Source: Escherichia coli O157:H7
GTDB lineage: Bacteria; Pseudomonadota; Gammaproteobacteria; Enterobacterales; Enterobacteriaceae
Length of the DNA stretch: 64,000 bases
NCBI RefSeq assembly: GCF_013167455.1
Contig: NZ_CP038328.1
Direction: 5' to 3' (one strand)
A program made the position numbers. The first letter of the stretch is position 1. Each line of letters opens with the position of its first letter. Of this stretch, positions 45,001 through 48,000 are shown piece after piece.

Positions 45001-48000
45001 GATTATGGGTTGATATTTATAAAGAAGCACAGCATGCAGGGGAAGTTCCTCCTGGATGGAATCCTCCGGAGGCTACCCGTAAACCGATCCCTAAAGTAAC
45101 CAGAGCCAGGCTCACCATGGAAGACTGGCAAAAAATTTACAATGCAACGCCTGAAAAACACTTTATCCGTAACGCAATGCTTCTTGCGATTGTTACTGGT
45201 CAGCGCCGTGATGACATTTGCCACATGCGTTTTTCAGATGTGTGGAACGAACACTTGCATATCACCCAGGGAAAAACCGGAATGCGTCTGGCGTTACCGC
45301 TTACACTACGCTGTGATGCCATTGGGATAACGTTAAAAGAAGTTATTGATGGGTGCCGAGACAGAATATTAAGTCCATATCTAATCCATAGTCGGCACCA
45401 GAAACAACCGAAGCCGATGAGTAAAGACAACCTGAGCGACTACTTTGCCAAAGCACGGGATCTGGCTGGGGTAATTCCACCAGCAGGAAAAACTCCGCCA
45501 ACATTTCATGAACAACGCTCTCTATCAGAACGGCTGTACCGTGCACAGGGTATCGATACAAAAACATTACTAGGACATAAAGTCCAGGCAACCACCGATC
45601 GCTATAACGATACTCGAGGTCAGGAATGGGTTAAGTTGGTTATTTGACAAACACCATATGGAATATCCGTCACCATCTCAGGAAAAAAGTGTTGTAAAAT
45701 GCGTGGCCTAGTTTTGGGGAAACGTTTTGGAGAGATTTTGGAGAAAGGAAAAAATTGAATAAATTCAAAATCCTGAAAGTGTCCCGCCTTATGAATAAAA
45801 AGGTGGAACTCGAATGATCGGTCGACTGCTTCGCGGCGGTTTTATGACCGCTATCTACGCGTACCTGTATATCCCAATCATTATTTTGATTGTGAACTCC
45901 TTTAACAGCTCGCGCTTTGGCATCAACTGGCAGGGTTTTACCACCAAATGGTATAGCCTGCTGATGAACAACGACAGCCTGTTACAGGCAGCGCAGCATT
46001 CACTAACAATGGCGGTGTTTTCGGCGACGTTTGCTACGCTTATCGGTTCACTGACGGCAGTTGCGCTGTACCGTTATCGCTTTCGTGGTAAGCCGTTCGT
46101 TAGCGGAATGCTGTTTGTGGTGATGATGTCACCAGATATCGTGATGGCGATTTCGCTGCTGGTGCTGTTTATGCTGCTGGGTATTCAGCTTGGCTTCTGG
46201 TCGCTGCTGTTCTCGCATATCACCTTCTGCCTGCCATTTGTGGTGGTGACGGTGTATTCGCGCCTGAAAGGTTTTGACGTGCGGATGCTGGAAGCGGCGA
46301 AAGATCTCGGTGCCAGCGAATTTACCATTCTGCGAAAAATCATTCTGCCACTGGCAATGCCAGCGGTGGCGGCAGGCTGGGTGTTAAGCTTTACCCTGTC
46401 GATGGACGATGTGGTGGTTTCTTCGTTCGTCACCGGGCCGAGTTATGAAATTCTGCCGTTAAAAATTTATTCGATGGTCAAAGTCGGCGTATCGCCGGAA
46501 GTTAACGCGCTGGCAACCATATTACTGGTGCTGTCGCTGGTGATGGTTATTGCCAGCCAGCTTATTGCTCGTGATAAAACGAAAGGTAACACAGGGGACG
46601 TTAAATGAAAAAATGGTCACGCCACCTGCTCGCGGCGGGTGCTCTGGCACTGGGCATGAGCGCCGCTCACGCCGATGACAACAACACGCTGTATTTCTAC
46701 AACTGGACCGAGTACGTGCCGCCAGGACTGCTTGAACAGTTCACCAAAGAAACCGGTATTAAGGTTATCTATTCGACTTACGAGTCGAACGAAACCATGT
46801 ATGCCAAGCTGAAAACGTACAAAGACGGTGCCTATGACCTGGTGGTTCCTTCAACCTATTACGTCGATAAAATGCGTAAAGAAGGGATGATCCAGAAGAT
46901 CGACAAGTCGAAGTTAACGAACTTCAGCAATCTCGATCCAGACATGCTCAATAAGCCGTTTGACCCGAATAACGATTACTCCATTCCGTATATCTGGGGT
47001 GCGACGGCGATTGGCGTTAACGGTGATGCGGTGGATCCGAAATCTGTCACCAGCTGGGCCGATTTGTGGAAGCCTGAGTACAAAGGCAGCCTGCTGCTGA
47101 CCGACGATGCCCGTGAAGTGTTCCAGATGGCGCTACGTAAGCTGGGCTACTCCGGTAACACCACCGATCCGAAAGAGATTGAAGCTGCATATAACGAGCT
47201 GAAAAAACTGATGCCAAACGTCGCAGCGTTTAACTCCGATAACCCGGCTAACCCGTACATGGAAGGCGAAGTTAACCTCGGCATGATCTGGAACGGTTCT
47301 GCTTTCGTTGCACGCCAGGCGGGTACGCCTATTGACGTGGTGTGGCCGAAAGAAGGCGGCATATTCTGGATGGACAGCCTGGCGATCCCGGCAAATGCCA
47401 AAAACAAAGAAGGCGCGCTGAAATTGATCAACTTCCTGCTGCGCCCGGATGTGGCAAAACAGGTTGCTGAAACTATCGGTTATCCAACGCCAAACCTTGC
47501 GGCGCGTAAGCTGTTAAGTCCAGAAGTGGCGAACGATAAGACGCTCTCCCCGGATGCTGAAACCATTAAAAATGGCGAATGGCAGAATGACGTTGGCGCA
47601 GCCAGCAGCATTTATGAAGAGTATTATCAGAAGCTGAAAGCAGGACGTTAATTCAGCAAGCGGGCGGTGGTATTACCGCCCGTTTTTTAGTTAGCAAGGA
47701 TGTGGCTAATGAGTCAGGACAGTAAAGTTTTATCCCGCTCTTTCGTCGGTATTGTGGTCCGCTTGTAGGCCTGATAAGCGTAGCGCATCAGGCAATGCTT
47801 CCTGCTTTATAATCCCTTCAGCAACTTTTCAACAAATTCTGGCACCACCTGGCTTGCCGGGCCGTAATATTTCTCGGCAAATTCATTACCGACCTGACTT
47901 GGTTCAAGATTCAGCTCCACGGTGTGCGCGCCATGCAGTTTCGCTTCGTGAACAAACCCAGCCGCCGGATAAACATGCCCGGAAGTACCAATGGCAATGA

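Follow-up and report, generated by a model that had tools for sequence, protein, structure and literature searches.

Does CobB of Escherichia coli O157:H7 end too early, or does the laboratory reference end too late? The question arises from a stretch of 64,000 nucleotides (assembly GCF_013167455.1, contig NZ_CP038328.1), referred to below as the window, in which the reading frame of cobB is six codons shorter than in strain K-12. A preliminary description of this DNA took the difference to be a possible one-base insertion that shortens CobB by six residues, and allowed that it might be a sequencing error. The locus was compared with K-12, with complete E. coli genomes and with homologous proteins from other genera.

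The cobB gene of the window and its difference from K-12

In the window cobB is an open reading frame of 273 codons on the minus strand, and its product ends KLLKGL* as had been described (Table 1). The final codons are GGA (47815-47813), TTA (47812-47810) and TAA (47809-47807). The longer reference given for comparison was correct as well. CobB of K-12 has 279 residues and ends KLLKGLKAGSIA, both in the translation of JW5503 and in the PDB chains 6rxj and 6rxm. Alignment to reference cobB, which had been proposed as a check, was performed with the gene of the K-12 derivative JW5503 (Keio). Exactly one extra base was found in the 3' end of the window gene, GGATTA[T]AAAGC versus GGATTA-AAAGC, and local BLAST of the window against K-12 gave a single gap across the whole of cobB. 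The extra base is a T, which opens the TAA stop on the minus strand (47809). Past this site the +1 frame of the window reads D-Y-K-A-G-S-I-A-*, so the remaining residues, KAGSIA, can indeed be read there as the preliminary description had stated; the position homologous to the TGA stop of K-12 is window 47790-47788. The allele-diagnostic strings at the indel site are GGNTTATAA for the T-bearing state and GGATTAAAAGC for the state with a KAGSIA-type tail.

Table 1. Features of the cobB region, in positions of the window
Feature	Position	Strand	Remarks
cobB	47807-48628	-	long isoform, NAD+-dependent Sir2-family protein deacylase; 273 aa, intact; from the ORF and the EDL933 RefSeq annotation
cobB TAA stop	47807-47809	-	first base, T 47809, absent from K-12-type strains
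Homologue of the K-12 tail codons	47788-47806	-	K-A-G-S-I-A-TGA in the +1 frame; untranslated 3' sequence in the window
REP hairpin (presumed)	47769-47793	-	25-nt palindrome just downstream of cobB; from RNA fold
Junction	47753-47756		1,291 bp of K-12 absent (ycfZ, and ymfA except for its first 44 nt)
potD	46605-47651	+	flanks cobB
nagK		-	upstream of cobB
Phage integrase	about 44529-45647		EDL933 annotation
Excisionase	about 44291-44560		EDL933 annotation

Residues 1-273 are identical in CobB of the window and of K-12. The two genes differ at 17 nucleotides over 819 nt, and all 17 differences are necessarily synonymous since these residues are the same in both forms. The differences are a matter of lineage divergence and not of error, as expected for diverged lineages under purifying selection.

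The SIR2 domain (PF02146) was detected at residues 48-221 and covered profile positions 1-180 of 180 with a score of 183.6 bits (gathering cut-off 24, E=4e-54). Domain span and Pfam score were the same in the 273-aa and the 279-aa forms. The NAD-binding GAGxS motif (GAGISAES at residue 48), the catalytic H147 within HMHG and the zinc cysteines C155, C174, C176 and C177 are all kept in CobB of the window, as are the two start codons (Met1 and Met38). For Salmonella CobB, residue 147 is likewise given as the active-site position, and C155 and C174 are named as Zn sites (PMC10965786). The structures of K-12 CobB in the PDB are deposited as NAD-dependent deacylase. With 100% identity to residues 1-273 of the K-12 protein, CobB of the window would be a fully functional NAD+-dependent deacylase, and the difference in length between 273 and 279 residues is expected to have no functional consequence.

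Window 42000-54000 (12 kb) was found to be 100% identical to many O157:H7 chromosomes, including EDL933, EC4115, TW14359 and Xuzhou21. The RefSeq annotation of EDL933 contains an intact 822-nt cobB encoding WP_000952736.1, a protein of 273 aa, and carries no pseudogene flag. No such flag was present on the 822-nt cobB CDS in the RefSeq annotation of 10 genomes inspected. According to the preliminary description, a reference cobB with the same sequence would speak against a shortened gene; the K-12 reference does not have that sequence, and the identical EDL933 does.

Occurrence of the two alleles in E. coli

The frequency of the extra T was determined in 5,426 complete E. coli genomes by means of short allele-specific queries. 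In each query the indel lies within all of the 28-base megablast seeds, so that only the query's own allele can be matched. The exact 33-mer of the window was found in 2,974 genomes and the K-12-type 32-mer in 1,707, which include K-12, BL21(DE3) and many isolates. These first two queries left 745 genomes unassigned. Sampling of the identity classes missed by them revealed a T-bearing allele with a synonymous GGA-to-GGC change in Gly272 (codon 272, window 47813-47815) and the same TAA stop. A third query for this GGC allele took up 702 genomes, leaving 43 (0.8%) in which none of the three queries matched. In total the T was present in 3,676 of the 5,426 genomes (67.7%) and absent in 1,707 (31.5%), a ratio of 68:31 that is not a population frequency, as the genome collection is skewed to clinical and laboratory strains. 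The window carries the majority cobB allele of E. coli.

The +T 33-mer and the K-12-type allele were each found at one place per genome. All identity classes in an evenly spaced sample of the results of a search with a 161-nt query were inspected; the K-12-like classes had a cobB of 840 nt and every other class one of 822 nt. The GGC allele was seen to accompany divergent ycfZ and ymfA protein variants in the loci sampled. Among the 2,974 matches to the +T 33-mer, five were on plasmid-labelled records, which was unexpected for a chromosomal housekeeping gene; the replicons may have been labelled wrongly, or they may be large plasmids derived from the chromosome.

CobB of other genera

A protein search gave 120 cluster representatives at E <= 1e-151, which were aligned with MAFFT; 119 of them lie outside the window's own type. 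The representatives belong mostly to named Enterobacteriaceae (Trabulsiella, Kosakonia, Enterobacter, Cronobacter, Franconibacter, Siccibacter, Klebsiella and Raoultella), and the nearest named non-Escherichia homologues are about 85-89% identical to CobB of the window. Nearly all representatives of the 120 clusters are 273 or 274 aa long. In 110 of the 119 the C-terminal end aligned exactly with Leu273 of the window, typically as ...LLKGL, and KAGSIA was found in one cluster only among the 120, that of the E. coli K-12 type. The alignment of CobB with Sir2-Af1 from Archaeoglobus (1m2g, 1ici), a distant sirtuin with a solved structure, reaches residue 273 and no further, and the first crystal construct of E. 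coli CobB, 1s5p, covers 40-274. By comparison with the family, as seen in the 110 of 119 representatives and in the Sir2-Af1 alignment, the C-terminus of the window protein is complete and not truncated. The cobB frame stops at the family-wide C-terminus, and the gene is neither a pseudogene nor a frameshift truncation.

The long isoform of CobB from Salmonella enterica has 273 aa, and the short isoform of 236 aa corresponds to residues 38-273 (PMC10965786, PMC8603916). On grounds of parsimony, the protein C-termini of other genera and this published length point to the TAA after Leu273 as the ancestral state. The derived event would then lie in the K-12-type lineage, where the deletion of one base lengthened CobB. 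Of the original interpretation, the one-base difference and the six-residue difference were confirmed; the proposed direction, an insertion and a shortening, conflicts with the C-termini of 110 of the 119 homologues.

Origin of the K-12 tail

The 25-nt palindrome just downstream of cobB, GCCTGATGCGCTACGCTTATCAGGC, is presumably a REP element, judging by the REP consensus. The palindrome was the sole strong hairpin in the RNA fold of the cobB 3' region, and the 96-nt 3' segment as a whole was not more stable than shuffles (z = -0.36). The sequence behaves as a dispersed repeat. The 161-nt query matched 102,751 places, with a median of 16 per E. coli genome, and one plasmid match was confined to query 107-137, corresponding to window 47794-47764, the palindrome segment. 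In K-12-type strains the extended frame runs AAA GCG GGA AGC ATT GCC TGA, and the last tail codons together with the new stop fall in the 5' arm of the REP. Here a REP has been drawn into coding sequence, where it supplies the end of the extended K-12-type CobB. Judged from the sequence, the six extra residues of K-12 would be recruited non-coding sequence and not a conserved part of the enzyme.

The most probable explanation for the two lengths of CobB is as follows. The ancestral CobB would have stopped at Leu273 with TAA, as it does across the Enterobacteriaceae. In a lineage including K-12 and BL21, a one-base deletion would have converted TTA TAA AGC into TTA AAA GC., with loss of the stop codon. 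Six further codons (KAGSIA), formerly part of the 3' untranslated sequence, would then be translated before a TGA in the REP hairpin is reached. The truncation of the window protein would be an apparent one, arising only from the use of K-12 as the reference. We assign a probability of about 95% to this reading, in which the window holds the ancestral, majority cobB allele in an O157:H7-type chromosome and the K-12 lineage lost one base.

Alternative explanations

The opposite event, insertion of a T in the lineage of the window leading to a premature stop in an originally 279-aa CobB, would also explain why the window has one base more than K-12 and why KAGSIA can still be read in the +1 frame, but it would leave the 273-aa end shared with 110 of 119 representatives and with Salmonella CobB (PMC10965786) to be accounted for. 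It fits poorly with the confinement of KAGSIA to the E. coli K-12-type cluster and with the overlap of the tail codons with a REP, an element of mobile, non-coding origin. In addition, the T is found in 67.7% of genomes, and among these are O157:H7, O145, O104:H4 and also strains whose flanking haplotypes diverge. An insertion and truncation in the lineage of the window is thus very unlikely, and was rejected on the outgroup C-termini and the published Salmonella length.

A functional switch between the two C-termini of CobB, operating for instance by phase variation or by programmed frameshifting, was considered in view of the commonness of both forms and the short open tail present in both reading frames. 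Neither a repeat tract nor a slippery heptamer is found at the indel site, one fixed allele is present per genome, in a single copy, and the tail lies outside the conserved fold. The two -T loci that were compared, those of K-12 and BS-01, are identical through and past the site, unlike the +T loci at linked positions, and the linked flanking differences that these two loci share are consistent with a single inherited event. The probability of such a switch is accordingly minimal.

That the extra T is an artefact of sequencing or assembly is just as improbable, and this was ruled out. Single-base indels are a common type of error, but the identical 33-mer occurs in 2,974 complete genomes that are independent of one another, and 702 more have a T-bearing synonymous variant (3,676 of 5,426 with the T). 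The site, TTATAAAG, contains no long homopolymer, and the flanking 12 kb show 100% identity to many O157:H7 genomes that were sequenced independently.

The surrounding region

In local BLAST against one and the same K-12 locus, window 48700-47757 corresponded to positions 52-994 and window 47752-46500 to positions 2286-3538. The 1,291 bp absent at the junction lie just beyond the REP, and potD is consequently placed directly downstream of cobB, with an intergenic region of 47652-47806. Adjacency of cobB and potD was also found in O145 RM9872 and ws5-3, which both have the T, and in BS-01, which lacks it. The absence of the 1,291 bp is therefore combined with both cobB alleles, either by recurrence or by recombination.

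The window is collinear with K-12 only as far as position 45792, which lies 26 nt into the 3' end of potB. For the part to its left (1-45791), the annotation of EDL933 contains genes of phage type, among them those for an integrase, an excisionase and a racR-like repressor. It appears that a prophage has integrated at potB, parting potA and potB from potCD.

Significance of the C-terminal difference

The 273-aa cobB is an ordinary natural polymorphism that has already been annotated, and the preliminary interpretation of it was reversed in direction. The biological weight of the difference is very small, as the gene is normal and annotated as such in thousands of genomes. K-12 is not always ancestral, and a protein that looks truncated next to its K-12 counterpart may reflect an extension specific to K-12. 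When CobB constructs from different strains are compared, the six C-terminal residues of K-12 CobB should be regarded as lineage-specific.

It is conceivable, though we consider it unlikely, that the KAGSIA tail of K-12 and BL21 alters the stability, localisation or regulation of CobB, a matter that concerns K-12 and not the window. Proteases specific for C-termini, for example, could recognise the small non-polar end of the tail. If this were true, CobB biochemistry and acetylome work in K-12 or BL21 would not be fully representative of the roughly two thirds of E. coli, O157:H7 among them, in which the ancestral 273-aa protein is made. No statement on a role for the C-terminal six residues of K-12 was found in the literature consulted, nor was any experimental comparison of the 273-aa and 279-aa forms.

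Comparison with known CobB proteins

The closest counterpart is CobB of EDL933 (WP_000952736.1), which has the same DNA over 12 kb and the same CDS coordinates, length and stop codon as the window; no difference was found. WP_000952736.1 is also the accession given to CobB in the annotation of O145 RM9872, O104:H4, ws5-3, CUVET19-1993, Z30 and WP4-W18-ESBL-09. CobB of Salmonella enterica, whose length was compared from the literature, has the same total length and the same two-isoform layout (Met1 and Met38) as CobB of the window. The two isoforms are an experimental result for Salmonella, whereas in the window they are predicted from the start codons. CobB of K-12 (WP_000952737.1, 279 aa; PDB 1S5P, 6RXJ) has the SIR2 domain, H147, the zinc cysteines and both starts as in the window. 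It differs in that the T at the position of 47809 and with it the TAA are missing, KAGSIA is added, and the reading frame is closed by a TGA inside the REP.
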